A stretch of 42,255 nucleotides of DNA from Folioceros fuciformis (lineage: Eukaryota). This document shows positions 1,361 to 42,255 of this stretch, in pieces. The stretch is taken from NCBI GenBank assembly GCA_049999805.1, contig JBNGIO010006081.1, forward strand, positions 1 to 42,255, read 5' to 3'. The notes below the pieces were generated by a model. It was not told the DNA's origin, did not search any database, and saw only the letters and a list, made by a program, of their open reading frames with translations. Position numbers and translations under genes: made by a program. Position 1 is the first letter of the stretch. Every line of letters starts with the position of its first letter.

Positions 1361-1406
1361 GATGCTCATTTAGTGCTGCAGGCATGTGCAATGCTCAGCG
1401 CAAGCC

Positions 1407-4400
1407 ATGGCTGCCTGGAGGTCAACTGGTGCTCTAGGAAAAGCTACTGCACGCTTGAGGAATCGACCATTGGCACGCATCACAACCGCTTGGCGGACTA
1501 ACAGGCAAGACAAGTATGGCCTCCGGTGTCCTGACTTCCGTCAAGGGAAGTCTCAGGAGGTTTGGCCGGACAAACTGTGCAAGCCAGCTCGGGTGGTTGC
1601 ACAGCCTGCGGTTGTGGAGGTGGACACGGCCCATGGTGCATACAACTTCATGTTGAAGTTGAGGGATGATTCTCGCCCCCCCAGGCCAGCAAGATACGAT
1701 ACGAGAGTAATGGGTGATACTGTGAGCAGGCTTCTTGAGCAGGGGCATCTCAGGGATGCTGTTGAGGCTTTGGGATGTCTGGTGGAGACAGACCGTTCTG
1801 TTCCCAAATCACTCTTCTACAATGTGTTGAAGAGATGTGCAATTGAGAAGGACCTCGTTCTGGGTCGACGGGTGCATGCTTTCGCGGTGGACAAGGGATA
1901 CCAGTCGGACACAATCCTCTGCAACCACATGCTGCGAATGTATGCTGCTCACGGGAGGTTGCAAGACGCGATGAACGTGTTTGTACTTGTTGCCAAACCA
2001 GATGCCTACACTTGGTCTGCCATAATCTCTGCTCATGTTAAACACGGACAAGACAAGCAAGCTATACAACTGTATCGCCAGATGCGCAGGTCAGGGGTGA
2101 AGCCCGATGGGCACGTGTTTGTGGCAGCTCTTCAGGCTTCGGCAAGAGGAGGAGACTTGAAAGCTGGAAAGCAGGTGCATGCTGATGTGTTGGCCACTGG
2201 GGTTGAGCCCCATTTATATGTCTCTAGTTCTTTGGTGGACATGTATGCAAAGTGTGGCAACTTGGAAGACGCCCAAAGAGTTTTCGACGGACTTGGAAGA
2301 AAAGATGCGGTGACTTGGAATGCCATGATAGCAGGGTATTCCCAGAAGGGCATGGGCCAAGAAGCCCTTCGTCTCTACAGTGCCATGGAAGAAGAGGGCA
2401 CTGCTGTGCCTACTTCTGTCACGTTCGTGAGCCTCCTGCAGGCATGTGCAAATCTGGGCACCCAGGCGTTGGAGGTTGGGAGGCAGCTTCATGCACAAAT
2501 CAGAGCACGAGGACATCAGTCTGCTGTGAATGTAGCCAACAGTCTGGTAAACATGTATGCGAAGTGTGGCAGCTTGGATGAAGCACAGAGAGTTTTTGAT
2601 GGACTTTGCCAAAAAGATGTGGTGACATGGACTGCCATGATTGCAGGGTACTCCCAGCAGGGCATGGGCCATGAAGCTCTTCGCCTTTACACTGCCATGC
2701 AACGAGATGGCATTTCCATACCCAACACTGTGACGTTTGTGTGCCTCCTGCAGGCATGTGCAACTGTTGGGACACCAGCGTTTGAGATGGGTAAGCAGCT
2801 TCATTTGCAAATTAGAGAACGGGGACACCAAGCCGATGTGTCCGTAGCTAACGGTTTGGTAAACATGTATTCGAAGTGTGGCAGCTTGGAAGACGCTCGC
2901 AGAGTGTTCGACGGACTTGCTGAAAAGGATGTGGTGACGTGGAATTCCATGATAGCAGGGTATTCCCAGCACGGCACGGGTCAAGAGGCCCTTTATCTGT
3001 ACAGTGCTATGCAAGAAGAAGGCAAAGCCGTGCCAGATGGTGTGTCATTTGTTTGCCTGCTGCAGGCATGTGCACGTGTGGGAGCCCCAGCTTTGGAGAC
3101 GGGGAAGCAACTACATTTGCAAATTAGAGATGGAGGTCATGACGCTGCAGTGTTTGTCGCCAACAGTTTGGTAAGCATGTATGCAAAGTGCGGCAGCCCG
3201 GAGGACTCTCGCAAAGTTTTCGACGAAATTCAGCAAAAAGATATCGTGACATGGAATGCCATGATAGCAGGCTATGCTCAGCATGGCATGGGTCAGCAGG
3301 CTCTTCGTCTCTACACTGTTATGCGAGAAGAATGCAGTGCTGTACCCGATTCTGTGACAATTGTGCACCTTCTGCAAGCATGTGCAGGTGTAGGCAACCC
3401 AGCTTTGGAGAACGGGAAGCAACTTCATGCTGAAATTAGAGAACGAGGACAGTTAGCGGACATGGCTGTTGCCAACAATTTGTTGAACATGTATGCAAAG
3501 TGTGGCAGCTTGGAAGAAGCTCATATTGTGTTTGACGGGCTTGGTCAGAAAGATGTGTTGACATGGAACACCATGATCGCAGGGTATTCCCAGCAGGGGA
3601 GGGTCCATGAAGCTCTTTGCATGTACAAAGATATGGAAGACGAAGGCCTCATAGTACCCAATTCCATGACTTTTGTTCGCCTCCTGCAGGCATGTGCAAG
3701 TATGGGCCCTCCAGCGTTGGAGAAGGGAAAACAGCTTCATGTGCTAAGCAGAGAGCGAGGACATCAAGCTGATGTGTTTGTAGCCAACAGTTTGGTGAAC
3801 ATGTATGCAAAGTGTGGCAGCTTGGAAGACTCTCGCAACGTTTTTGATGGATTTAGTCAAAGGGATGTGGTTACGTGGAATGCCATGATGGCAGGGTACT
3901 CCCAGCAGGGTCTGGGCCAGGAAGCCCTTCACCTTTACGATGCCATGCAAGCAGAAGGCGTTGCAGTACCAGACTCTGTGACATTCGTTTCCCTGCTGCA
4001 GGCATGTGCCAGTGTGGGCAGGGAAGCTTTGAGGCAAGGAGAGCAGCTTCATGCGCACATCAGAGAGCAAGGACACGAAGATGATGTGTTTGTAGCGAAC
4101 AGTTTAGTAAACATGTATGCAAAGTGTGGCAACTTGGAACGTGCTCGTAGATTGTTTGATGCGCTTGGTCAAAAAGATGTGGTCACATGGACTGCTATGA
4201 TAACAGGGTATTCCCAGCAGGGAATGGGCCAGGAGGCTCTTCGTCTTTCTAGGGTTATGCAAGATGAAAGTGTTGCTGTACCAGACTCTGTGACACTTGT
4301 GTGCCTCCTGCAAGCATGTGCAAATGTTGCAGCTTTGCATCTGGGAAGGCAGCTACATGCACAAATTGTGGATCAAGGGCTTCAAGCTGACCTGTTTGTA

Positions 4401-5093
4401 GCTAGCAGTTTGATAAACATGTATGGAAAGTGTGGGAGCATGATTGATGCACAGAATGTGTTTGATGAATTGCCTGTAAGAGATGTGGTCGCCTGGACGG
4501 CACTGATTGGGGGCTACACCTCTCAAGGAGACTGTGAAGCTGTGTTCGACTTGGTCCAGAAGATGAGACAGGATGGGAAACAGCCAGTAAGCATCACACT
4601 TCTGAGTGTGCTAACAGTATGCAGTCATGCTGGTTTAGTGAATAAGGGGAGAGAGTACTTTGAAGCTATGGGCACAGAATATGGCATTGCTCCTACTGTG
4701 GAGCATTATACATGCATGGTGGATCTTCTGGGCCGTTCAGGCCAACTGGACGAGGCACTTGGTTTGATAAGGACGATGGCCTTTGTGCCTAATGCTACAG
4801 TGTGGCGCACTCTGCTGGGTGCTTGTCAAAAATGGAGCAACGTGGAAGTGGGACGCCGCGCTTTCGACTATTTGGTGAAGCTGGAGAGTAAGGATTCTGC
4901 AGCGTATGTGTTGATGTCCAACATCTACAGAGGTGCTCAAATGTGGGAACAGGCGAAGGGGATGCAGGCAAGAAGGATAAGAATGAGGGCATGGAAGCAG
5001 CCGGGTCAGAGCTGGTGGACAGACGTGGATGGACTGGTGCATACTTTTCTGGTTGGGGAAGCAGGATGTGATAGTCACCAGCGGCTGAAATAG
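1407..5093 (+). CDS. PLS-class pentatricopeptide repeat protein with E1/E2/E+ and a truncated DYW:WW-type C-terminus (organellar RNA-editing factor type); intronless
   Basis: Repeated P-L-S triplets (VVTWNAMIAGY / TFVSLLQACA / VANSLVNMYAKCG), then P2-L2-S2 ('LSVLTVCSHAGLV', 'EHYTCMVDLLGRSG'), E1 'VWRTLLGAC', E2 'AAYVLMSNIY', then 'KQPGQSWWTD...VHTF' and a stop. First in-frame ATG is at 1407; the basic Arg-rich N-terminus looks like a transit peptide. Confidence 0.95.
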   Translation: MAAWRSTGALGKATARLRNRPLARITTAWRTNRQDKYGLRCPDFRQGKSQEVWPDKLCKPARVVAQPAVVEVDTAHGAYNFMLKLRDDSRPPRPARYDTRVMGDTVSRLLEQGHLRDAVEALGCLVETDRSVPKSLFYNVLKRCAIEKDLVLGRRVHAFAVDKGYQSDTILCNHMLRMYAAHGRLQDAMNVFVLVAKPDAYTWSAIISAHVKHGQDKQAIQLYRQMRRSGVKPDGHVFVAALQASARGGDLKAGKQVHADVLATGVEPHLYVSSSLVDMYAKCGNLEDAQRVFDGLGRKDAVTWNAMIAGYSQKGMGQEALRLYSAMEEEGTAVPTSVTFVSLLQACANLGTQALEVGRQLHAQIRARGHQSAVNVANSLVNMYAKCGSLDEAQRVFDGLCQKDVVTWTAMIAGYSQQGMGHEALRLYTAMQRDGISIPNTVTFVCLLQACATVGTPAFEMGKQLHLQIRERGHQADVSVANGLVNMYSKCGSLEDARRVFDGLAEKDVVTWNSMIAGYSQHGTGQEALYLYSAMQEEGKAVPDGVSFVCLLQACARVGAPALETGKQLHLQIRDGGHDAAVFVANSLVSMYAKCGSPEDSRKVFDEIQQKDIVTWNAMIAGYAQHGMGQQALRLYTVMREECSAVPDSVTIVHLLQACAGVGNPALENGKQLHAEIRERGQLADMAVANNLLNMYAKCGSLEEAHIVFDGLGQKDVLTWNTMIAGYSQQGRVHEALCMYKDMEDEGLIVPNSMTFVRLLQACASMGPPALEKGKQLHVLSRERGHQADVFVANSLVNMYAKCGSLEDSRNVFDGFSQRDVVTWNAMMAGYSQQGLGQEALHLYDAMQAEGVAVPDSVTFVSLLQACASVGREALRQGEQLHAHIREQGHEDDVFVANSLVNMYAKCGNLERARRLFDALGQKDVVTWTAMITGYSQQGMGQEALRLSRVMQDESVAVPDSVTLVCLLQACANVAALHLGRQLHAQIVDQGLQADLFVASSLINMYGKCGSMIDAQNVFDELPVRDVVAWTALIGGYTSQGDCEAVFDLVQKMRQDGKQPVSITLLSVLTVCSHAGLVNKGREYFEAMGTEYGIAPTVEHYTCMVDLLGRSGQLDEALGLIRTMAFVPNATVWRTLLGACQKWSNVEVGRRAFDYLVKLESKDSAAYVLMSNIYRGAQMWEQAKGMQARRIRMRAWKQPGQSWWTDVDGLVHTFLVGEAGCDSHQRLK
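2220..4500 (+). repeat. 312-bp tandem PLS-triplet repeat (about 7 units) inside the PPR gene
   Basis: The 'ATGTATGCAAAGTGTGGCAG'-like anchor recurs at 2241, 2553, 2865, 3177, 3489, 3801 and 4113 (period 312 bp), and again at 4419. Confidence 0.9.
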
Positions 5094-10099: not shown

Positions 10100-10327
10100 C
10101 CAACAATGTTCCCTAATTTCTTTAATTTTCAAGTCCCAAACCAATAATATCCCCTAATTCCTTCATTGCCAACGATGTCCCTGATTTCTTACTTTTCAAG
10201 TCCTAAACCAACANNNNNNNNNNCTTACTTTTCAAGTCCTAAACCAACAATGTCCCCTAATTCTTTCACTGCCAACAATATCCCCTAATTCTTTCACTGC
10301 CAACAATGTCCCCTAATTCTTTCACTT
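10100..10327. repeat. Imperfect tandem repeat, core ~28 bp (CAACAATGTCCCCTAATTCTTTCACTGC) with longer variants; spans a 10-N gap (10214-10223)
   Basis: Multiple copies of caacaatgtcccctaattct and tttcaagtcctaaacc are directly visible. Confidence 0.85.
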
Positions 10328-25078: not shown

Positions 25079-26058
25079 GCCGCCCATACTGCCCCGCCTG
25101 CTGGTATTGCCCACCAGGAGCAGGAGGGAGACGAGGAGATAGCCGATCACACTACGCACTGCCGCCGCAGCCGCCGGGGACAGCAGTGCGGCCAGGACAA
25201 GGTCAGACCAGTGGCAGAGCCTGGGCCAGAGCTGAGGGGACGCCATGGGCGCCCATCGTCGCTCCGGATTCCAGCAGGCTCACCGCCAATCCAACCAGGG
25301 GGCGATCGGGGAGAGCTACAGGCGTCGCAGCAAGGCCCCGGGAGCCTCGAGCATCAAGGGTTTGTCAGGGTTTTGACCCGCACATGACCCACATGCATGA
25401 TTTGCATGCCTGCCGTCTTCTCGCTCTAGAGCGTCGCGGGCATTGCATTCAAACTTGCTGCCGGTGAAGTTCCAGACAGGCCTATGATTCTTTTTCTCCC
25501 CTTTCCCATTTCGCCAGCCAGCCAACCAGCCAGCCAGTCAGTCAGCTTAGATCTGCCAGTGTCCCCCTTTCCTACATGCCGGCGCCTAAGTCTGGGAGCG
25601 CAGCCCCATGGAGGAGTATGTTGCTCCGAGCCCCTAGGTCCCCCCCATGCATCGTCGCCCCAGCTGCAGCCACCTGGGGTTTGTTTTTGCACATGCCTAT
25701 GCCTCTGCCTCTGCCTGCCGGTTGCGCAGGAGATGTGAACTGGTGAGCACTGCAATCGCTTTGTGGTTTGCGTGTAGTGCTTTGTGGCTGCTACATTCCA
25801 TTTTCGCCAGGGCTGTGGTTACAAATTCACCATCGCTGCCCAATTAAGCTGGTGGCTGGGCTGGCCTGTCCGTCCGCCTTCCATACTCTTTCTGTCTTCT
25901 GTCTGCTTATGTGTGCGTTTGTAATTGTAGATATAGCTCTTGTATGGCTCCCGGCGTCGGTCTCTGGGTCTCTATATATGTCTGTTCTATGCTGACTGTC
26001 TGAGAACTAGTCTGCTTTCTGTCAGCACGACGACGCTCTGTGAAGTGAAGCTGTCCGA

Positions 26059-29000
26059 ATGCTAAATCCAATGGCTAGTACGGATGGTTTCATGAGGGAC
26101 GGGCCTGCCGTCGGGGAACATAAGGTGTACAGGTCTAAGAGGAAGTGGGAGCGGAGCACTGGCGGGGCTGGTCTGGACAGGTCAGGGGATACTGAAATTA
26201 GGCTCAAGGATCTCAAGGACATCAAGCCTGAGCAAGGGAGATTGGACAGTCTGGCGGCTCTGGCCAGGGAGCGGGGCTCAGATTCCCCCAGCGAGGAGCA
26301 GCAGCAGCAACAGCACAAGGCTCCTGTGATGGAGCAGGACAAGGCTCCCAGGTTCAAGCACTCTCGGAAGCCCAAAAAGTCCCGTGGCGCAGCGGCCGGA
26401 TCAACCAGTCGGGTTGTAGGGGAGGTGAAGCCGGCTCCTCCTCCTCCTCCTCCTCCTCCTCCTCCTAAACCGGAGGTTGTGAAGGAGGAGGAGGTTGAAT
26501 CAGAGGAGCAAGAGGTGGAGCCTGAGCCGGACCCGGCGTCGGACACTGTGAGTGAAGATGAGAAGCCTCGGCGGAAGCGCCAACGCCGTGCACGCAAGCA
26601 GGTGAAGGGCAAGGCAGGAGTATCGGAGAAGGGGAAGGTTGCTTCTAAGGGCAGAGGGAAGGCCAGAAAGGGGGGTGGCGATGAGGAGGAAGCGGAGGTT
26701 GAGGACGAAAATAGGTGTAAGAGATCTGATGGGAAGTCCTGGAGGTGCAGCAAACCGCTGTACAAAGAAGGGTGGTGCCAGTACCATTACGAATACTACG
26801 AGTGTAAGAAGTCCAAGTCGGCCCCGCCCGCTAGGGGAAAGAGACAGCCCAAGAAGGTTACTACTGCTCGGAGGGGCAAAGGTGCGCAGAATGAGGCAGC
26901 TGGGAGCAAGGATAGTGCTGATGAATCTCAGCAGGAGCAAGAGGAGGAGGAGTTCGTCGCCCAACATGAGGTAAAGTCGGTGAGACGAGGTGTGAAGAGG
27001 AAGGAAAGGGTTGATGAAGATGAGCAGCAGGAGGGTGAGGGCCGTGCAGAGGCTGTGGCAGAATCGGAGCCGAAGAAGGCAAGAAGGGGACAGAAGAAGG
27101 GTATAATGGATGAAGATCAGCAGCAGGAGGATGAGAGTCGTGTGCAGGTTGTGTTAGAAAGGGAAGGCAAGAAGGTGAAGAGAGGTCAGATGAAGAAGAA
27201 TATTGTGGACGAAGCTCGGCAGGAGGAGGATGAGAGCCGTGTGAGGGCTGTGGCAGAACCGGAGGTGAAGCCTGTTGTGGATGCAGAATTGAAGCTTGTG
27301 GTCAAAAGAGGTCAGAAGACGAGGGAGAGTCTGGACGAAGGTCAGGAGCAAGTTGAAGATCGTGAGCTGGCTGTTGCAAGACCGGAGGTGAAGAAGGCCA
27401 GAGGAGGTCTGAAGAGGAAGGCCTTGTCGGAAGGTGAAGCATCCAAACCGTCGCCCTATTTGCTGAGTGACCATCGCGAAGGTAAGCGTTTGAAGTCTCT
27501 GAAGGATACACAGCCTGCCAAATCTGAGGCGCAGGAACTGGCAGAGGAAAACACGAGTGCAGAGACTGATGATGTCGAGGAGCATGTTAGAGATTCGTTG
27601 CAGAAGTCTCATCCCAGGAGGTGTCACCAATGCTGGAGGTTGGGGAACGTAGCATCATGTGGAGCCTGTAGGGATACGCAGCGCCGCTATTGTGACCATT
27701 GTATAGCCAAGTGGTACCCACACCTAACGATGGAAGATGTGGCAGAGAGGTGTCCCTACTGTTCTGGCTACTGTAACTGTAAGACATGTCTACGGAGGGC
27801 ACGGCCAACAGCGGAGGTGGATAGTGCAGGGAAGTCTGAGCACCTGCTCTACCTCCTGCGTAAAGTTCTGCCGTCTTTGTGTCAAATGAATGAGGAGCAG
27901 GCTGACGAGCTGAAGTTTGAGAGGGAGTTGCGGGGAGATCCAGATTATCAAGTGGAGAAAACTCATATATCAATCAGGGAGAGGATGTATTGTGACAATT
28001 GCAACACTTCAATAGTTGATTATTACAGGACCTGTACAGAGTGTCAGTATGAGCTGTGCCTTGATTGCTGTAAAGAGACCCGGTTGGGAAGCATGCATCC
28101 AGCCCTCCTTAACTCCAAGGGATTGTCTGAACAAGATGGAGGCCACTCAGAGCGATTGGCTGAAATGCTAGCAGAGGAAAGGGAGAGGAGGGGGCCCGTC
28201 GTTCTTGAAGCTGATGCCATTGGAGGGGTAGGTCACGTTGTGTTATCCTCAGCTGTTATGGAGGTGGCAGAACATCATGTATCACCTTCAAGTGCTGTGG
28301 AGGAGATAGGTCAAGTTGCAACACCTTCATGTCCTGTTAAGGAGGTCAACCAGGTTGCATCACCTTCAAGTGCTGTGAAGGAGGTCAACCAGGTTGCATC
28401 ACCGTCAGGTGCTGTGAAGGAGGTCAACCAGGTTGCATCGCCTTCAGGTGCTGTCGGGGTCGTAGGTCTGAACTCATCACGTTCACGTGTTGTTGGGATC
28501 TTATGTAACGTTTTATCAACTTCAGATGTTGTGAAGGAGGTAGCTCATGTAGTATCAGACTCGGGTGCGTTGAAGGAGGTCTGCTGCGTATCACCTTCAG
28601 GTGCCGTGGAAGGGGTGGATCGTCTTGAATCACCATCAGGTGCTGCAGAGAAGGCGGGTCACTTAGCAACATCTTCAGGTGCTGCTGAGGAGGTGGGTAA
28701 CGTTGTAGCACCATCAAGTGCTGCTGAGGAGGTAGATCACGATGCAACACCTTCAGGACCTGTGGAGGAGCCAAATTATGTTGCATCGCGTTCATGTGCT
28801 GTGGAGGAGGGTGGCCACGTTGTATTACCTCCAGCTGCTGTGGAGATGGTAGGTTACGTTATGGAGGAGGGCAAGCCTTCTGGAGGTGCTGTGGAGAAGG
28901 TAGTTGACGCTGTTGACGTTTTTACTGTCAAAGTGGATGCTAGCTGCTCAAAAGCTGTGGGAACAGATGGTGAGCTGGAAGAGGACGCCAAGATGTCATC

Positions 29001-31386
29001 TCTGGGGAGCAGGGAAGGTGCAAGCTTGTCAGCAGCTTTTGAGGATGAGGCTACTGTACCTTCTGCTATGGATGAGGATGCTGGTCTTTCAGTGTCCGCT
29101 GAGGGAGATGGTAAGGGCTCTTCAGCTACAGCTCACAAAGATGCTGGCCCAGCGAATACAAAGACTGGAGATGAGAATGGTCCCTCCGCTATGGATGACG
29201 GAAATGCCGGGATACCAACCCTGGCAAATTCTTTAGTGCAAGATGAAGGGAAGGCTCAAGCCTCCTCTGCACCAGGTGAAGGGGATGAGGGCCTGCTATT
29301 GGTTAATGACGGATGTAATGTCCCTCCATCAGTGACTGAGCAGGAGACTAAACATCAGAGTGGCCCTTCAGCAATTGAGGGAGGAAGCGTCTGTGATCCA
29401 AACCCAGACCATCCAGAGGCTTCAGTGCAAGGTCAGGAAAAGGGCCTCCTGTTCCCTCATGATGAGGGTGATGTGCATCCCTCTGTGACCGAGAAGGTGG
29501 ATGCTAGCCGCTCTGGAGATTTGGGAGAACAAGATGTTGGTGCCTCAGTTGTGGCTGGGGGTGAGGTCAGCAGCCCTTCAGGTTTGGCTAAAGGGGATCC
29601 TGGTCCTTCAGCACCTGCTGACTGCTCTTCTGGTGACACCGGCAAGGATAAAGGAAGGATTGACCGTGGTTTAGTTGCTGATGAAGGAGAACGAGGCATT
29701 GATGGCGTGGATGTGGGCCCTCTGCCAGCTGGAGATGAGGAAGATGTTCCGCAAGGAGTAGGCAGCAATGAAGAGTCAAATGACAGAGTCACTCAATCTC
29801 AAGAAAGTCCACTGAAAGGTGGCAGGGATGGGACGAATGTATGCCTTCGCAAGAATTGTCGTGGATGTGGCAAACACAATCTATCCTTAAGATCACTTCA
29901 AGGTGGGAACGCAGTCAGTGAACTTTGGGCAAAGGTCGATAGTATCCTTTCCTTGTCATCTGTCAGTCTTGGAGAGGATAAGCCAGGATGCCAGTATTGT
30001 GACCAGAGCAGTGCATCAACGTCCAAGCAGTTGCGTGTGGCTGCTGATAGGTCCACAGGAGATGACAACTGTTTGTTCACGGCCAGTGTGGACAGTCTAA
30101 ATGATGAGAGCTTGCTTCACTTCCAACAACATTGGCGTCAAGGTCAGCCAGTGATTGTGACACGGGTCAATGAACTTGGCACTGGCCTCAGTTGGGAACC
30201 TATGGTGATGTGGCGTGCTGTTCGCGAAAAGAGCAAAAAAACGAAGCATGATGACACGCTCTCGGTGAAGGCTATCAACTGTAAGTCTGGTTGTGAGGTT
30301 GAGATTATGATTAAAAAATTCTTTCTCGAATATGAGAAACACAGGGCGTTTCTCGATGGTAACCCTCCTGATATGTACAAGTTAAAAGACTGGCCTCCTG
30401 CAACCTCTTTCAATGAACGTCTTCCTCGCCACCATGCAGAGTTTCTTCTATGTCTGCCATTCAAGCAATATACTCATCCAGAGTTGGGAATCTTGAATCT
30501 GGCTAGCAAAATGCCTGAAGGTGCTTTGAAACCTGATTTAGGTCCCAAGACATACATTGCGTATGGAATCCGTGAGGAGATGGGTCATGGAGATTCAGTC
30601 ACTAAACTTCACTGTGATATGTCAGACGCAGTCAATGTGCTTATGCACTCTCAAGGCACTGAGTCACAGATTTCAGGAAAGTTGCAGTGCACGGGCAAGG
30701 AGGTCTTACCGTCAGGAGGTGCTCTCTGGGATATTTTCCGACGAGAGGATGTACCGAAATTGAAGGACTATATTAAGGCACATTGGGCAGAATTTTCCGA
30801 CGAGAAATGGGATGATGGGATATCACACCCGGTCCATGATCAGATGGTCTATCTCAGCAATGAACACAAATCGAGACTGAAGTCTGAAATGGACATCGAA
30901 GCTTGGACCTTTGAACAGCGCGTTGGAGAGGCTGTATTTATACCTGCAGGCTGTCCTCATCAGGTTCGCAACCTCCAGTCATGCATAAAGGTAGCCATGG
31001 ACTTTGTATCACCAGAGAATGTGGATCACTGTGTTCAGCTTACGAAGGAGTTCAGACTGCTCCCCAACTACCATCCTGCCAAGGAGGACAAGCTTGAGAT
31101 TAAGAAGATGGTGTTCCATGCTGCAAAGATGGCCGTGGAATACTTGGAACTAGACAGTCTGAGTGCAGGGGCTCAAGCGGATGTGGAGGAGCAAGTGCAG
31201 AAGCCTTCAAAGGCTTCGAAGTCGCCTTCCAAACCGAAGAAGGGGAAAGGTTTTAAGAGGAAAACGAAGTTTTCCAGGAAGAAAACGGAAGTCTCCCCAC
31301 AATCGTCCAAGAAAAGAGGAGCTTCCGAAAGCAAAGTCGATGAATCCCCTCAGTCTTCTGAGGAAAGGCCACGTTCTTCTGAGTAA
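26059..31386 (+). CDS. KDM3/JHDM2-family JmjC H3K9 demethylase (WRC + RING-like + Zn finger + JmjC), single 1775-aa intronless ORF
   Basis: WRC 'RCKRSDGKSWRC..CQYH', RING-like 'CHQC..CGAC..YCDHCIAKWYP..CPYCSGYCNCKTC', 'ERMYCDNCNTSIVDYYRTC', JmjC 'KLKDWPP..PDLGPKTYIAYG..TKLHCDMSDAVN..GGALWDIFRREDV..IPAGCPHQVRNL'. The Fe(II) ligands H-x-D...H are intact. Confidence 0.95.
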   Translation: MLNPMASTDGFMRDGPAVGEHKVYRSKRKWERSTGGAGLDRSGDTEIRLKDLKDIKPEQGRLDSLAALARERGSDSPSEEQQQQQHKAPVMEQDKAPRFKHSRKPKKSRGAAAGSTSRVVGEVKPAPPPPPPPPPPKPEVVKEEEVESEEQEVEPEPDPASDTVSEDEKPRRKRQRRARKQVKGKAGVSEKGKVASKGRGKARKGGGDEEEAEVEDENRCKRSDGKSWRCSKPLYKEGWCQYHYEYYECKKSKSAPPARGKRQPKKVTTARRGKGAQNEAAGSKDSADESQQEQEEEEFVAQHEVKSVRRGVKRKERVDEDEQQEGEGRAEAVAESEPKKARRGQKKGIMDEDQQQEDESRVQVVLEREGKKVKRGQMKKNIVDEARQEEDESRVRAVAEPEVKPVVDAELKLVVKRGQKTRESLDEGQEQVEDRELAVARPEVKKARGGLKRKALSEGEASKPSPYLLSDHREGKRLKSLKDTQPAKSEAQELAEENTSAETDDVEEHVRDSLQKSHPRRCHQCWRLGNVASCGACRDTQRRYCDHCIAKWYPHLTMEDVAERCPYCSGYCNCKTCLRRARPTAEVDSAGKSEHLLYLLRKVLPSLCQMNEEQADELKFERELRGDPDYQVEKTHISIRERMYCDNCNTSIVDYYRTCTECQYELCLDCCKETRLGSMHPALLNSKGLSEQDGGHSERLAEMLAEERERRGPVVLEADAIGGVGHVVLSSAVMEVAEHHVSPSSAVEEIGQVATPSCPVKEVNQVASPSSAVKEVNQVASPSGAVKEVNQVASPSGAVGVVGLNSSRSRVVGILCNVLSTSDVVKEVAHVVSDSGALKEVCCVSPSGAVEGVDRLESPSGAAEKAGHLATSSGAAEEVGNVVAPSSAAEEVDHDATPSGPVEEPNYVASRSCAVEEGGHVVLPPAAVEMVGYVMEEGKPSGGAVEKVVDAVDVFTVKVDASCSKAVGTDGELEEDAKMSSLGSREGASLSAAFEDEATVPSAMDEDAGLSVSAEGDGKGSSATAHKDAGPANTKTGDENGPSAMDDGNAGIPTLANSLVQDEGKAQASSAPGEGDEGLLLVNDGCNVPPSVTEQETKHQSGPSAIEGGSVCDPNPDHPEASVQGQEKGLLFPHDEGDVHPSVTEKVDASRSGDLGEQDVGASVVAGGEVSSPSGLAKGDPGPSAPADCSSGDTGKDKGRIDRGLVADEGERGIDGVDVGPLPAGDEEDVPQGVGSNEESNDRVTQSQESPLKGGRDGTNVCLRKNCRGCGKHNLSLRSLQGGNAVSELWAKVDSILSLSSVSLGEDKPGCQYCDQSSASTSKQLRVAADRSTGDDNCLFTASVDSLNDESLLHFQQHWRQGQPVIVTRVNELGTGLSWEPMVMWRAVREKSKKTKHDDTLSVKAINCKSGCEVEIMIKKFFLEYEKHRAFLDGNPPDMYKLKDWPPATSFNERLPRHHAEFLLCLPFKQYTHPELGILNLASKMPEGALKPDLGPKTYIAYGIREEMGHGDSVTKLHCDMSDAVNVLMHSQGTESQISGKLQCTGKEVLPSGGALWDIFRREDVPKLKDYIKAHWAEFSDEKWDDGISHPVHDQMVYLSNEHKSRLKSEMDIEAWTFEQRVGEAVFIPAGCPHQVRNLQSCIKVAMDFVSPENVDHCVQLTKEFRLLPNYHPAKEDKLEIKKMVFHAAKMAVEYLELDSLSAGAQADVEEQVQKPSKASKSPSKPKKGKGFKRKTKFSRKKTEVSPQSSKKRGASESKVDESPQSSEERPRSSE
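26437..26466 (+). repeat. (CCT)10 coding microsatellite (poly-Pro) in KDM3
   Basis: Ten uninterrupted CCT units. Confidence 0.95.
28210..28900 (+). repeat. 39-bp (13-aa) coding minisatellite in KDM3, many degenerate copies
   Basis: 'CACCTTCAAGTGCTGTGAAGGAGGTCAACCAGGTTGCAT'-like units encode AVKEVNQVASPSG; near-identical copies at about 28320-28455 decay outward. Confidence 0.9.
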
Positions 31387-37642: not shown

Positions 37643-39560
37643 CTAAAAATGCTCATCATTCGCCAGATTGACGCCATTCATAATCCTCTCAAGTGTGAAC
37701 AAGACACTCTCACGTGCGATTGATGTCGAAGTAACCAACTCCTGCAATAAAGGCGTACAGACTTAATACGTGGAATACGATGACGCACTCTATTTTGGAA
37801 GAAAACACCCACACACCATGCAAAATACCTCGACTAATTCGGGTGAGTAGGGGAAGTCCGACAAGCTCCCCTGTTGCAGATTTGGGAACTTTGACTGCAA
37901 ATACTTGGACCAATAACTTTGAAACTTCGCCCCCAGCGAACCTGACAACGGCATCTCTATATGACAAACGACCTTCGCCGCTTTCGCAAAGTGATACACT
38001 GAAATACACCCACGGTCAGTATACATCGAAGGGAATCTTCACAAGAAGGTCAAGAAAGATGGTTGAGAGGTTTACCGAGGCATATCAAAAGCTGTTCCGC
38101 CCATGGGTAGTCTGGGAGTACAAAGATAGAGGACACGGTGAAACGATACCGTGAGCGTTTGTCCTGCAGGAGTGAAAAGCTCAGAGACTTGTAGGACACA
38201 CAGCACGCTGCACTTACAGAACTCAACCGTACACGAGTACAGTGCATGACAACTTAGTCCAACCTTTAAAAAGTATCCAATGAAATTAAGCCTCAGAGAT
38301 TCATCACGGCAATGGAGAACGTAAAACACATAGTCGCTCACGCTCCAATCCGCTGGAGCATGACCCGAGAAAAGCTTCGCCAAGAAAAAAATGTTTGCAC
38401 AGAACTTCTGATTCTCCTCACCCATGACCTGTGATACAAGGCACAATACATCAAATCAGCTCAAACTAACTTACGCAACAAGATTTCGTCAGAAAAAAGT
38501 ACTAACCGACACTGTCCACTTGCCTCATAAACTCCATACTTGTTTCTACCATCAGGGCCATCAGTGTAAACGAGACGTCCAGGTGGGGCGAGCGAACGGC
38601 AATGATCCTGGCAATTAGCAAGAGCGTCAGCGACACAGTAACCAGCTGACAACTTAGTGAAACAGTGGAAACGAAGTCTAACCTCAAGACCCTCTCCGTA
38701 TCTGTGCTCCAAACATGCCTGGCAGACGAAAAGCTTGGGCATGTACTCCCAACGATCAGGTGGCAACAGTGGGCACGACGAAGTTTTCATTGACTGCTTT
38801 CCAATTTGGATAACACACACAGGCCGGGGAACTCGCTGAATCACAATCGCAACGGCAACAGCATCAGAAACTAGGTCAACTCCCTTGCCCTTGACATCAC
38901 AAAGGAAGACCCTAAAGCAACTACCATTCCGACACAAACAATCACACCGATATCACAGGCCACCACGATCCTCTCACTCAGAAGGATGCTAAGCCCGTCA
39001 GATCATGTGTGTGATACTGATCATCACATATCAGCATTGCAGAATATCGATCATCCTCGGGCAGTCACTTGTACAGAAAGCAGAGCTCGAGAAACGAACG
39101 CCACAAGACACTCTCACGCACCACTACCACATACCTCACCGTTGGGATCGGGGCAAAACGTAACATCAAACTGAACCAGACTGGCCACCTCCTCTGTCGT
39201 CCTAGATATTCTCACCGGCAAAACCTCCACCGCATCCTCCACCTCATTGTCCACGCCTACGAGCTCAATTTGGACCCCGGGTTCGCGTCCAGCCCGGCCC
39301 GATTCTGCTTTCTGGCGTAGTAGTCCCTCGGCCGTCCGGGTGGCTCGAAATTTCCTCTTCCTTGGACGTACACTCGCCCGAGACTTGATTGTCCGTGGAC
39401 ACAGCTTGATACCTTGTACAGCATGATCGTCAGCCCCCCCGGCGCCATCGCCAGCGGCAGCCAAGCTCTCAGGACCCGGGGGCTCATTCCGCCGTACCGA
39501 AAGAAACCTAAGTATGTGCTTAGGGACACGGCGAACGTTCACCTTCCACTTGCTTGTCAT
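37643..39560 (-). CDS. Highly diverged MYST-family (HAM1/2, Esa1-like) acetyltransferase-domain protein; proposed exons 39560-39135, 38835-38683, 38607-38524, 38428-38264, 38163-38076, 37998-37829, 37741-37643
   Basis: The spliced frame is open and collinear with MYST: 'VCVIQIGKQSMKT..PLLPP..KLFVCQACL', 'PPGRLVY', 'YE|VMGEENQKFCANIFFLAKLF..YVFYVL..FIGYFLK', 'VSSIFVLPDY', 'EMPLSGSLG..FQSYW', 'ELVTSTSIARESVLFTLE'. Linkage of the first exon is less certain. Confidence 0.75.
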
Positions 39561-40088
39561 TTCTGATTGTTGCTATCGATATATGTACAGTATGCAGAAC
39601 GCAATTTTCGTAACTAAATTAATTTTACGAGCTCTCGGTTCCTACACCTTTCGAAGTGTATCGGTAATCAACTAAGCTAAGCATATTCACATATATAGAC
39701 GAAACATTGAACAGCAGTCGATAAAAGAACACGAAAGGTTAAGCATTTTTTTATATCGCTTAATATTAATTGTTTTTATTAATAATATTTGTTTAATACT
39801 ATTTTTATATTTAAAATATAATACTAGTCAAATAGAATTTGGATCACAATACACATAGATAATTCAATCGTTAAAATTCAAGATAAAAAATATATTTTTT
39901 TATTACTATTAGAGCTCAAATAGCAAAGCATAACGCTTTATCTCTTTCTTGTTCTCGCTTGAAGAAGGCTTGCGGTTTAGGGTTTAGGGTTTTATTCTAT
40001 CATTTCTTCATATTTAACATGATTAGTAGTATAATTTAAAAAAAATTATAACATATTTTATTTTTAAGCTAATAGATAGTGTTTTTGA

Positions 40089-40188
40089 NNNNNNNNNNNN
40101 NNNNNNNNNNNNNNNNNNNNNNNNNNNNNNNNNNNNNNNNNNNNNNNNNNNNNNNNNNNNNNNNNNNNNNNNNNNNNNNNNNNNNNNN
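40089..40188. other. Assembly gap (100 N) in AT-rich sequence
   Basis: Run of 100 Ns; adjacency across the gap is not guaranteed. Confidence 0.99.
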
Positions 40189-40203
40189 CGCCCAAGATTA
40201 GAA

Positions 40204-40419
40204 TAAATGTAGGGCTGAAATGAAAGCTACTATTTACATATTTTGTTTATTAAGACCTAAAATAGTATGATGCTTTTCTACAAGGAAAATATAGTATGTG
40301 TTCTCCGGGACTAAATGTAGTGGTTAAATGAAAGCTATTATTTGTAATATTTTGTTTAACAAGACCTAAAATAGTATGATGCTTTTATACAAGAAAAACA
40401 TATTACATGTTCTCAGGGC
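40204..40419. repeat. 108-bp degenerate tandem duplication
   Basis: TAAATGTAG..AAATGAAAGCTA..AAGACCTAAAATAGTATGATGCTTTT..GTTCTC starts at 40204 and again at 40312. Confidence 0.85.
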
Positions 40420-40490
40420 ACTTCATTCTCACTCATATAAAAGGCATGGTGTGATCTACTTGTACTCACAATGTATTTTCCATTACGCCC

Positions 40491-40645
40491 TTCACTCCTA
40501 GCAAGGAACAAATAAACTCCTTCCATTGCAAACCTTGGGACAAAGCTGCTATTGTTGTCTTTCACTCTTAGCTAGAAACAAATAAACTCGTTCCATCGCA
40601 AACCTTGGGATAAAGGTGCCATTGTTGCCTTTCACTCCTAGCTAG
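40491..40645. repeat. 70-bp tandem repeat (~2.2 copies) upstream of the ATG8-like gene
   Basis: TTCACTCYTAGC starts at 40491, 40561 and 40631; the first two units continue AACAAATAAACTC..GCAAACCTTGGGA. Confidence 0.85.
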
Positions 40646-40877
40646 GTGCCATTGGTGCCGTTGTTGTTTCGTGGTGAATTGCTAGTTGTGGAAGGTGCGT
40701 CGGCCAAGGAAATTTGATCCAACAAAAGGCTGTTGCGCATCTAGAGCTCAGGTATCTTTCTTGAACTTGGATTCATTATGTGAGTTTGTTGGAGTGTTAA
40801 GGGATAATGTAGCATCTTAAGAGTACCGGACATGTTATTTGTTGCCAACAGGAGTTATGGGGAGGCTTATTAGAGAA

Positions 40878-41755
40878 ATGCAAAGCTCTGTCAAGGAGAG
40901 CTATACTATTGGTTAGGATCTTGTCAAATTCCTTTGAGATTAGGAGTAGCTTGCTGTTTGGTCTAGCTAACTAGGATGTGCAAACAGAGCAAAGGATTGC
41001 GATGACTCAGGAAGCAAAAGAAAGATTTCCACACAAACTATCAGTATGTACACCAACTTGTGTTGCTATACCAAAACCTTCCTCCAAAGATCTTTAATGT
41101 ACCGCTTAGCTATGATGTTTTTCGTAATGGAGTTGTGCTTGTTGTGTTTTGTGTTTGATTGTAGGTCATGATTGAGAGAGCTCCTGGTGCCGATCTTCCG
41201 AAATTAGCTCAGAGTAGGTAGGTTTGTTGCTTTCTTTCATCTTCATGCATTTTTAGTGCTACCTACCTCTGGTCTCTCCAATCTTGTTATTGATTTCCGT
41301 TGTTATGTGAGTTCCCTTTCAGGTTATTGGTTCGTTGTGAGGCGTCACTCGAAGAACTCCGGTCTCAGATTCTAGTGCGAATCGAGCGCGAACACCACTT
41401 ACAATCCGAAGACACTATCGATTATGCTGGCAATGGGGCTCTTGATCGTGACGAAACTCTCATATTCTTTGTAGATGGATTTCTCCCTAAACAAAGTATG
41501 TCTTCTCGATAGGAAAACAACAACAATCTTTCGCATGCTTCTCGTTACTCACATTCAGATTAAATGTTTAGGATTTATGTAGACAACTTGTTTTGCTTCC
41601 CCTCAACTTTCTATTAAACTCGTTGCAATGTTTCGGATGTAGGTGCCATGATGAACACTTTGCATGCCGCTCATCATGATGAGGATGGCTTTTTGTATCT
41701 CTACTATATTGGTTCGAAGAAGTTTGACGACGGTAGATCATATATCTTCTCCTAA
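40878..41755 (+). CDS. Divergent ATG8/GABARAP-like ubiquitin-fold protein, 142 aa; exons 40878-40911, 40988-41043, 41165-41217, 41323-41495, 41643-41755
   Basis: Spliced product MQSSVKESYTIEQRIAMTQEAKERFPHKLSVMIERAPGADLPKLAQSRLLVRCEASLEELRSQILVRIEREHHLQSEDTIDYAGNGALDRDETLIFFVDGFLPKQSAMMNTLHAAHHDEDGFLYLYYIGSKKFDDGRSYIFS. It aligns with plant ATG8 throughout (DEDGFLY hallmark). All introns are GT-AG at the usual ATG8 positions. Confidence 0.85.
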
Positions 41756-42255
41756 ACTCGAATAAAATGGAAAAACAATCTACCCCTAGTCTACACCTAG
41801 AGGGTAACTCTTGAAGCTTAATGACTACCAATAGTACCTAAAATATTATGGTTCGGAAGGAGAAAGAATCTACCTACTAAGGAGTTATGAAGCCGCATAG
41901 AAAGAGTCTACCTACCACTGGGGAGAGCCCTCTTGTAAATATAGTCCTAGGCAATGTTCGATGTAAAGCAATGGAAACCCTAATACAATAATAGATTCTA
42001 AGATTAAGGATTACCATAGCTTATTAACTTTTATTATAACACCTCTAATTATACAGAGGCCTTAGATTATATTTTAATATTAAATTAATTTAGTCGTCCT
42101 AACCTATATAACAGGCTTGAATGTCAGCGGTTTCCGCAGCATGCATGTTCAGTGTTCACTGGCTTGTGTGAATGTTACAATCAGATGTTTCTTTGTTTTT
42201 CATTCATGTGAGCTAAATCTTAATCCGTGCCAAGTGGCGGCCAGAAGGCCACGTC

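Follow-up and report, generated by a model that had tools for sequence, protein, structure and literature searches.

Near the end of a 42,255-nt stretch of the Folioceros fuciformis genome (GenBank assembly GCA_049999805.1, contig JBNGIO010006081.1, positions 1 to 42,255 of the forward strand; hereafter the window) we identified a five-exon ATG8-like gene, at positions 40878-41755, that encodes aspartate where ATG8 proteins carry the glycine used for conjugation. With about even confidence, we read this gene as an intact, intron-containing, extremely diverged and non-lipidatable paralogue with the ATG8 fold, maintained by selection in a land-plant nuclear genome. Few eukaryotic proteins are as conserved as ATG8: family members match the family consensus at a median of 93.5 of 115 columns, and the protein encoded here matches it at 38. 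If the reading is correct, the gene would show a route from a conjugated ubiquitin-like protein to a non-covalent one, as in ATG12. It would also provide a natural separation-of-function variant for plant autophagy, in which the fold and the strand-3 surface are present without lipidation or canonical binding of ATG8-interacting motifs (AIMs). Should the gene prove a silent relic, it would count among the ordinary by-products of duplication; its interest depends on its expression and on orthologues.

A script read of the forward strand joined five coding exons of 34, 56, 53, 173 and 113 nt, reproducing the model proposed in an earlier, sequence-only reading of this DNA. The spliced frame is 429 nt long and comprises 142 codons plus TAA, with zero internal stops. 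The exons are as follows (slashes here and below mark splice or cleavage points).

40878-40911, forward strand: coding exon 1, 34 nt; the ATG at 40878 aligns with the family N-terminus, and the donor reads TTG/gttagg.
40988-41043, forward strand: coding exon 2, 56 nt; aligned to N-terminal helices 1-2 of the ATG8 model.
41165-41217, forward strand: coding exon 3, 53 nt; aligned to strand 1 and the loop preceding the equivalent of KKKYLVP; in-frame stops flank it on both sides.
41323-41495, forward strand: coding exon 4, 173 nt; it contains LLVR... (the remodelled docking segment), helix 3, 18 extra residues and the LIFFV strand.
41643-41755, forward strand: coding exon 5, 113 nt, the last three being TAA at 41753-41755; it encodes DEDGFLY and ends in ..KKF-D-DG-RSYIFS.

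All four introns are bounded by GT and AG, and their splice sites fit the consensus. The remaining donors read TCA/gtatgt, TAG/gtaggt and AAA/gtatgt, and the acceptors tttcag/G, ttgtag/G or atgtag/G. Introns are 36-41% GC and 34-48% T, compared with 43.6% GC and 28% T in the exons, which is the usual plant contrast. As alternatives we tried, up to 45 nt from each proposed site, all GT..AG pairs (38, 24, 24 and 6 for the four introns). Among pairs that leave the frame open, the proposed one has the top ATG8-profile score at 4/4 introns, so the exon boundaries are not arbitrary. The sequence-only reading had also described an ATG8 exon structure. Compared as exon count, this description holds, five coding exons being the number most often reported in Brassica napus ATG8 genes (PMC9569553).

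The homology of the spliced protein to ATG8 extends over nearly its full length. A profile built from 96 family members of 108-135 aa scores it at 58.0 bits (E 4.2e-20, Z=1), with profile positions 2-115 of 117 aligned to residues 2-133. The comparators go back to a degenerate-motif scan of genome contigs: one of the ATG8 genes that it found drew 3172 family members, and 120 of them were retained. The best-listed blastp alignments have 26-28% identity over 128-137 columns, with E down to 4e-20. Because the profile and blastp alignments both run through the spliced protein, all five exons belong to one ATG8 homologue. Single exons carry the signal unevenly. Exon 5 alone matches the Pfam ATG8 family (PF02991; E 0.0011, 19.6 bits, under the cutoff of 27) and chains of ATG8, GABARAP and LC3 in the PDB (best 9j5g_A, E 2.9e-4); the best 60 of the 100 distinct PDB sequences that it matched at E of 10 or less all belong to the ATG8/GABARAP/LC3 family. 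Exon 4 alone gave no Pfam ATG8 match, only a sub-threshold one to YvrJ, and no PDB match at E of 10 or less; nor did exon 2 alone, padded to a 40-aa frame, match the PDB at that threshold. Membership of ATG12 (PF04110) was considered and rejected: exons 4 and 5 have no match to it at E of 1 or less, and exon 5 matches ATG8 only.

The protein has diverged to an extreme degree. On the same profile, full-length members score 164-262 bits (median 207) against 58 here, and the lowest-scoring other sequence, a 103-aa fragment, reaches 96. The family has 50 columns with at least 90% conservation; 19 of them are kept here and 31 changed, the conjugation glycine being one of the changed. In a quick tree, the gene sits on an end branch of 10 changes per column, over 50-fold the median of 0.18, and none of its neighbours is supported.

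In canonical ATG8 the C-terminal glycine is exposed by ATG4 and joined to phosphatidylethanolamine by ATG7, ATG3 and ATG12-ATG5-ATG16 (PMC7301642, PMC7615515), and it is treated as a hallmark of the family (PMC9569553). Bryophyte ATG8s are reported as clade I, and some end at this residue (PMC9807217). The last column of our profile is Gly in 96/96 members and Asp in the gene studied here, and the PDB alignments also place Asp there. Among 122 fetched proteins examined, 102 have the C-terminal motif, and every one of these (102/102) carries Gly. The aligned ends are ..YIGSKKFD here and ..YSGENTFG in the family; the site Asp is followed by Asp-Gly and then by six residues (RSYIFS). The tail given earlier as YIGSKKFD-DGRSYIFS, with Asp for Gly, is thus borne out by both sets of alignments. 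The Phe that precedes the conjugation site, found in 96/96 members, is retained. Five tail columns ahead of this Phe reach 90% conservation (S, G, E, N and T); only the Gly among them is retained, and with the Phe included four of six are changed. Because Asp replaces Gly and the preceding tail is altered, canonical lipidation is unlikely; most likely the protein would undergo neither canonical ATG4 processing nor lipidation. Without lipidation it would stay, if expressed, a soluble protein with the ATG8 fold.

The surface that reads AIMs, also termed LC3-interacting regions (LIRs), appears to have been remodelled as well. We took the residues of its pair of hydrophobic pockets (HP1 and HP2) from PMC7615515 and mapped them by residue type and spacing to the family columns and to a canonical family member (P0080), whose numbering equals that of LC3B for residues 51-67. 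On this residue list, five of the seven HP1 positions differ (Glu to Met, Ile to Ala, Pro to Ser, Ile to Met and Lys to Arg), with Leu and Phe identical (2/7). In HP2, Tyr is replaced by Leu, Pro by Arg, Phe by Ile and Val by Arg, with one Val and one Ile identical (2/6). In total 9/13 pocket residues are changed, two of them to Arg inside HP2, and both gatekeeper lysines are replaced, one by Gln and one by Arg. The profile columns agree with the sequence-only reading that KKKYLVP has become QSRLLVR, and that DEDGFLY is retained (seven consecutive identities). Given the changes at 9/13 pocket residues and at both gatekeeper lysines, AIM binding is expected to be weak or re-specified: canonical AIM cargo receptors would probably bind weakly or not at all, or the groove may have acquired a different specificity.

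The opposite side of the domain is partly preserved. Strand 3, which is IFIFV in the family, is LIFFV here and hydrophobic throughout. The docking strand for ubiquitin-interacting motifs (UIMs) had been described as kept, and this stands in so far as the strand is hydrophobic and the equivalent of yeast F79 is still Phe; the equivalent of F77, however, is Ile. The strand-3 surface is contacted by ATG4 and Hfl1, and structural proof that UIMs bind there is lacking (PMC7615515). The largely retained hydrophobic strand could still meet partners of the UIM-docking and ATG4-contact side.

A third departure from the family is an insertion. The roughly 18 extra exon-4 residues noticed earlier appear as 18 gap columns in each blastp alignment listed; they are acidic or polar and occupy approximately residues 71-88. 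In the AlphaFold model of the canonical member (predicted local distance difference test score, pLDDT, 91.8) the corresponding region falls between helix 60-70 (helix 3) and strand 77-83 (strand 3). The profile aligner splits the insertion into 4 and 14 residues and puts the 14-residue part inside the strand, probably as an artefact, and the exact placement is uncertain. The insertion would add an acidic loop beside helix 3 to a protein that is acidic as a whole: the isoelectric point (pI) is 5.48 and the net charge -6, where the medians for the family are 7.82 and +1, although 13/96 members also have a pI below 6. Inspection of the insertion and the tail by eye revealed no AIM-like motif of the form aromatic-x-x-aliphatic. 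Excision of the 18 residues as an internal intron was considered and rejected, as 54 nt would be too short for a plant intron.

If the gene is a maintained, non-lipidatable paralogue, its product may act in one of several ways. A more specific proposal, which we put forward only tentatively, is that it is a selected "pseudo-ATG8": never lipidated, without canonical AIM reading, equipped with a new acidic loop, and serving as a soluble regulator. Such a protein could tie up ATG4, ATG7 or UIM-type partners by way of the strand-3 patch, or it could bind new ligands in the groove. We infer that a role as decoy or regulator is possible. If correct, the green lineage would have its first described ATG8 paralogue that cannot be conjugated. 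A plant ATG8 paralogue without the Gly was not found in the full-text literature searched, which covered neither subscription papers nor supplements.

By sequence the gene belongs with ATG8, yet two hallmarks of the family, the Gly and the conserved docking pockets, are not retained. The likenesses to canonical ATG8 of plants, algae and fungi (PF02991; plant clade I) are the whole-length homology, the hydrophobic pattern of two N-terminal helices and a ubiquitin-like core, the DEDGFLY block, the Phe before the conjugation site and the five coding exons. The differences are Asp for Gly, the remodelled HP1 and HP2, the 18-residue insertion, and an acidic rather than neutral-to-basic protein. Three known cases come closest as functional analogues. 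The atypical ATG8A, ATG8B and ATG8C of Leishmania and other kinetoplastids are likewise ATG8 paralogues in which the LIR interface is not conserved and the surface near the UIM site is kept (PMC10903960). According to that paper, their function and partners are unknown, and cleavage by ATG4 was modelled as compatible. They differ in belonging to an unrelated lineage and forming large amplified arrays, whereas the gene described here is a single copy in the window, has introns and has lost the Gly.

The second case is ATG12. Forms without the conjugation Gly occur in Chara braunii, Toxoplasma gondii and Komagataella phaffii, and these too are ubiquitin-like proteins of autophagy (PMC6652269). 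In T. gondii and K. phaffii the Gly-less ATG12 is a non-covalent partner, a role that for C. braunii has only been proposed (PMC6652269, citing Pang et al. 2019). Unlike the ATG8-derived protein considered here, ATG12 is known to partner ATG5, and in its case the loss of ATG10 is linked. Lipidation-independent roles have been described for ATG8 itself, namely for yeast Atg8 with Hfl1 and for Drosophila Atg8b in male fertility (PMC7615515; PMC6279349). These cases are alike in that the ATG8 fold acts without lipid, via the docking site and the opposite hydrophobic site. They are unlike in that the proteins retain the Gly and canonical pockets and can be lipidated; the gene examined here has lost both.

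The altered sites raise the question of whether the gene has been under constraint or has simply decayed. We compared it with a simulation in which 40 family members were back-translated with window codon usage and mutated neutrally in 15 runs each (600 in all), without indels, with transitions twice as likely as each transversion, and stopped at 38/115 consensus identity. Decay to this level takes 0.45 substitutions per site and brings a mean of 5.8 stop-creating hits, and the frame stayed free of stops in 4/600 runs. This share would shrink further if indels, the start codon and the eight splice dinucleotides were counted. The protein is hydrophobic at 32/37 columns that are hydrophobic in at least 90% of the family; the simulated median is 26, and 11/600 runs reach 32. 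Outside columns 54-76, which are ambiguously aligned, the count is 24/26, a value reached by 4/600 simulations. A run of seven identities such as DEDGFLY occurred in 15/600, a feature noticed before it was tested. Because the open frame and the hydrophobic pattern are each so rare under neutral decay, an old, freely drifting pseudogene is unlikely, and selection appears to have kept the reading frame and the ubiquitin-like hydrophobic core over most of the history of the gene. These tests cannot tell a living gene from a recently dead one.

The profile score was also tried as a signal of constraint and rejected. With simulations matched to the ancestor at 33%, it seemed significant (58 bits reached in 1/640 and 2/400 runs), but with matching to the consensus the effect was gone.

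The most serious rival is that a once-functional, divergent ATG8 paralogue is now silent, either as a recently dead unitary pseudogene or as a duplicate under very weak constraint; we consider this possible, and the maintained paralogue the better reading. The sequence-only reading had named two outcomes that bear on this choice. Its non-lipidated paralogue survives with the anatomy right, an intact gene that cannot be conjugated via the canonical Gly being the best reading, and with the recently dead gene still a rival. Its young pseudogene fits poorly with the extreme divergence, in consensus identity and branch length alike. The rarity of stop-free frames in the neutral runs, even before indels, splice dinucleotides and the ATG are considered, speaks against a relic, as does the over-retention of hydrophobic columns. 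A relic would in turn agree with the change at 31/50 of the highly conserved columns, the Gly among them.

Several further observations favour the relic and weigh against a gene maintained by selection. In the simulations that were kept stop-free, the profile score has a median of 52.6 bits and 220/600 runs reach 58.0, so that the real score is not above the neutral expectation. With the insertion removed the real score becomes 68.5 or 76.2 bits, values that 97/600 and 43/600 simulations reach. If the insertion is placed by hand as one block, the hydrophobic count falls to about 30/37, and 74/600 simulations reach 30. GC content at third codon positions (GC3) is 0.42, the lowest among the window genes measured (0.48-0.73), as expected of a gene that is weakly expressed or decaying. 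The gene lies in an AT-rich, repeat-bearing stretch of 2 kb adjoining an assembly gap, it is known here from DNA alone, and searches of protein libraries with exon 4 and the exon-5 frame turned up no orthologue or paralogue.

Those searches had the following scope. Exon 4 against proteins longer than 100 aa gave 20 candidates, none at E of 0.01 or less, and against 1.84 billion representatives it gave zero matches at E of 0.001 or less. A 45-aa exon-5 frame, which includes 9 intron-translated residues, gave 3 candidates among proteins of 80-2000 aa, none at E of 10 or less. An exact look-up of nine neighbouring open reading frames of the window found none of them in the protein collection. Because 9/9 neighbours are also missing, the absence of relatives is weak evidence; the source proteome may be absent from the collection or modelled differently.

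That the gene model is wrong is improbable. The start could differ, the last exon could lie past the window end, introns could be retained, or the 2-kb stretch could be misplaced. The model was built from sequence, and the surroundings leave some room for error. The gene falls within the final 2,067 bases of the window, past a 100-N assembly gap at 40089-40188. The ATG comes 690 nt after that gap, and another 500 nt of the window follow the gene. Because the gap intervenes, the linkage of the gene to its window neighbours rests on scaffolding. The flanking features that bear on the ends of the gene are these.

40752-40851, forward strand: putative intron in the 5' untranslated region, with GT at 40752 and AG at 40850-40851 (cag/GTatct ... 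ccaacAG/gag); T-rich, about 38% GC.
40857-40859, forward strand: in-frame upstream ATG, 21 nt before 40878; it would add seven N-terminal residues (149 vs 142 aa).
41761-41766, forward strand: AATAAA, a possible polyadenylation signal, 6 nt past the stop codon.

Splicing out the putative leader intron would drop three upstream ATGs (40778, 40807 and 40832), leaving that at 40857 as the first. Against a wrong model, 4/4 junctions are the best-scoring open choice within 45 nt, and homology runs in family order across the five exons to the last-but-one residue of the family; because it reaches that far, no further coding exon is expected. Against a misplaced stretch, DNA on both sides of the gap is AT-rich.

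Still less probable, and in our view very unlikely, is conjugation at a shifted site, in which a protease (ATG4 or another) would cut after the later Gly (..F-D-D-G/RSYIFS) and that Gly would be joined to lipid or protein. Two residues past the canonical position there is indeed a Gly, with a 6-residue tail after it, and among fetched family members the tails after the Gly range from 0 to 39 residues. ATG4 would be expected to need Phe-Gly. The residue preceding the shifted Gly is Asp, where the family has Phe in 96/96 members, and the retained Phe precedes Asp; the family SGENT tail is changed at 4/5 positions. In addition, Ile stands at the equivalent of yeast F77, a residue that contacts ATG4 (role from PMC7615515).

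Two further explanations can be dealt with briefly. A processed, retro-copied pseudogene is ruled out by the four GT-AG introns of the coding region and by the absence of stops and frameshifts, and a transposon or captured fragment is without support, with no inverted repeats and no second copy, although this is weak evidence from a flank of only 2 kb. The inverted-repeat search covered 40189-42255 and found none, and self-blastn found no second copy of the gene in the window.

Two tandem repeats lie between the gap and the gene (Tandem Repeats Finder and self-blastn).

40204-40418: tandem repeat of two 109-bp units, 85% matches.
40487-40645: tandem repeat of a 70-bp unit, 2.3 copies, 86% matches, in the presumed promoter or leader region.

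They could be promoter elements or the remains of a mobile element. An AT-rich island spans 39500-40500, with 20-29% GC on both sides of the gap, within a region of about 50% GC. TTTAGGG, a unit of the plant telomere type, occurs there as a tandem pair at approximately 39975-39992, and a AAACCCTAA motif is present near 41975. A second, shorter run of N (10 N) is found at 10214-10223. The window has no Rfam match.

Elsewhere the window has a GC content of about 50% and carries ordinary land-plant genes, whose products are a 1228-aa PPR protein with E motif, VPS11, a PsbP-domain protein, Rubisco activase, an FKBP, a JmjC/WRC protein and ROOT UVB SENSITIVE (RUS). The PPR frame (1374-5093, forward strand) is uninterrupted over 1239 codons and ends in the E motif, with no DYW domain by Pfam. 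Another uninterrupted frame, of 1780 codons (26044-31386, forward strand), has WRC, zinc finger and JmjC domains. The genes of this genome seem intron-poor, in contrast to the five-exon ATG8-like gene. Between the RUS gene and the AT-rich island, two minus-strand frames of 163 and 152 codons (38461-39572) have no Pfam match; the 152-codon frame, GC-rich at up to 60%, looks towards the ATG8-like gene from the other side of the gap.

The scan of genome contigs behind the comparators returned two intronless, complete ATG8 genes on AT-rich contigs, L001 (876-1247, minus strand) and L002 (1689-2054, forward strand), with Pfam scores of 125-127 bits and long branches in the tree (2.2-2.6). Both contigs are titled as bacterial metagenome-assembled genomes (Candidatus Pacebacteria; Rhodobacteraceae) and probably represent DNA of eukaryotes or giant viruses that was binned with bacteria. 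The L001 contig also carries a frame that, judged by eye, resembles a UMP-synthase gene.

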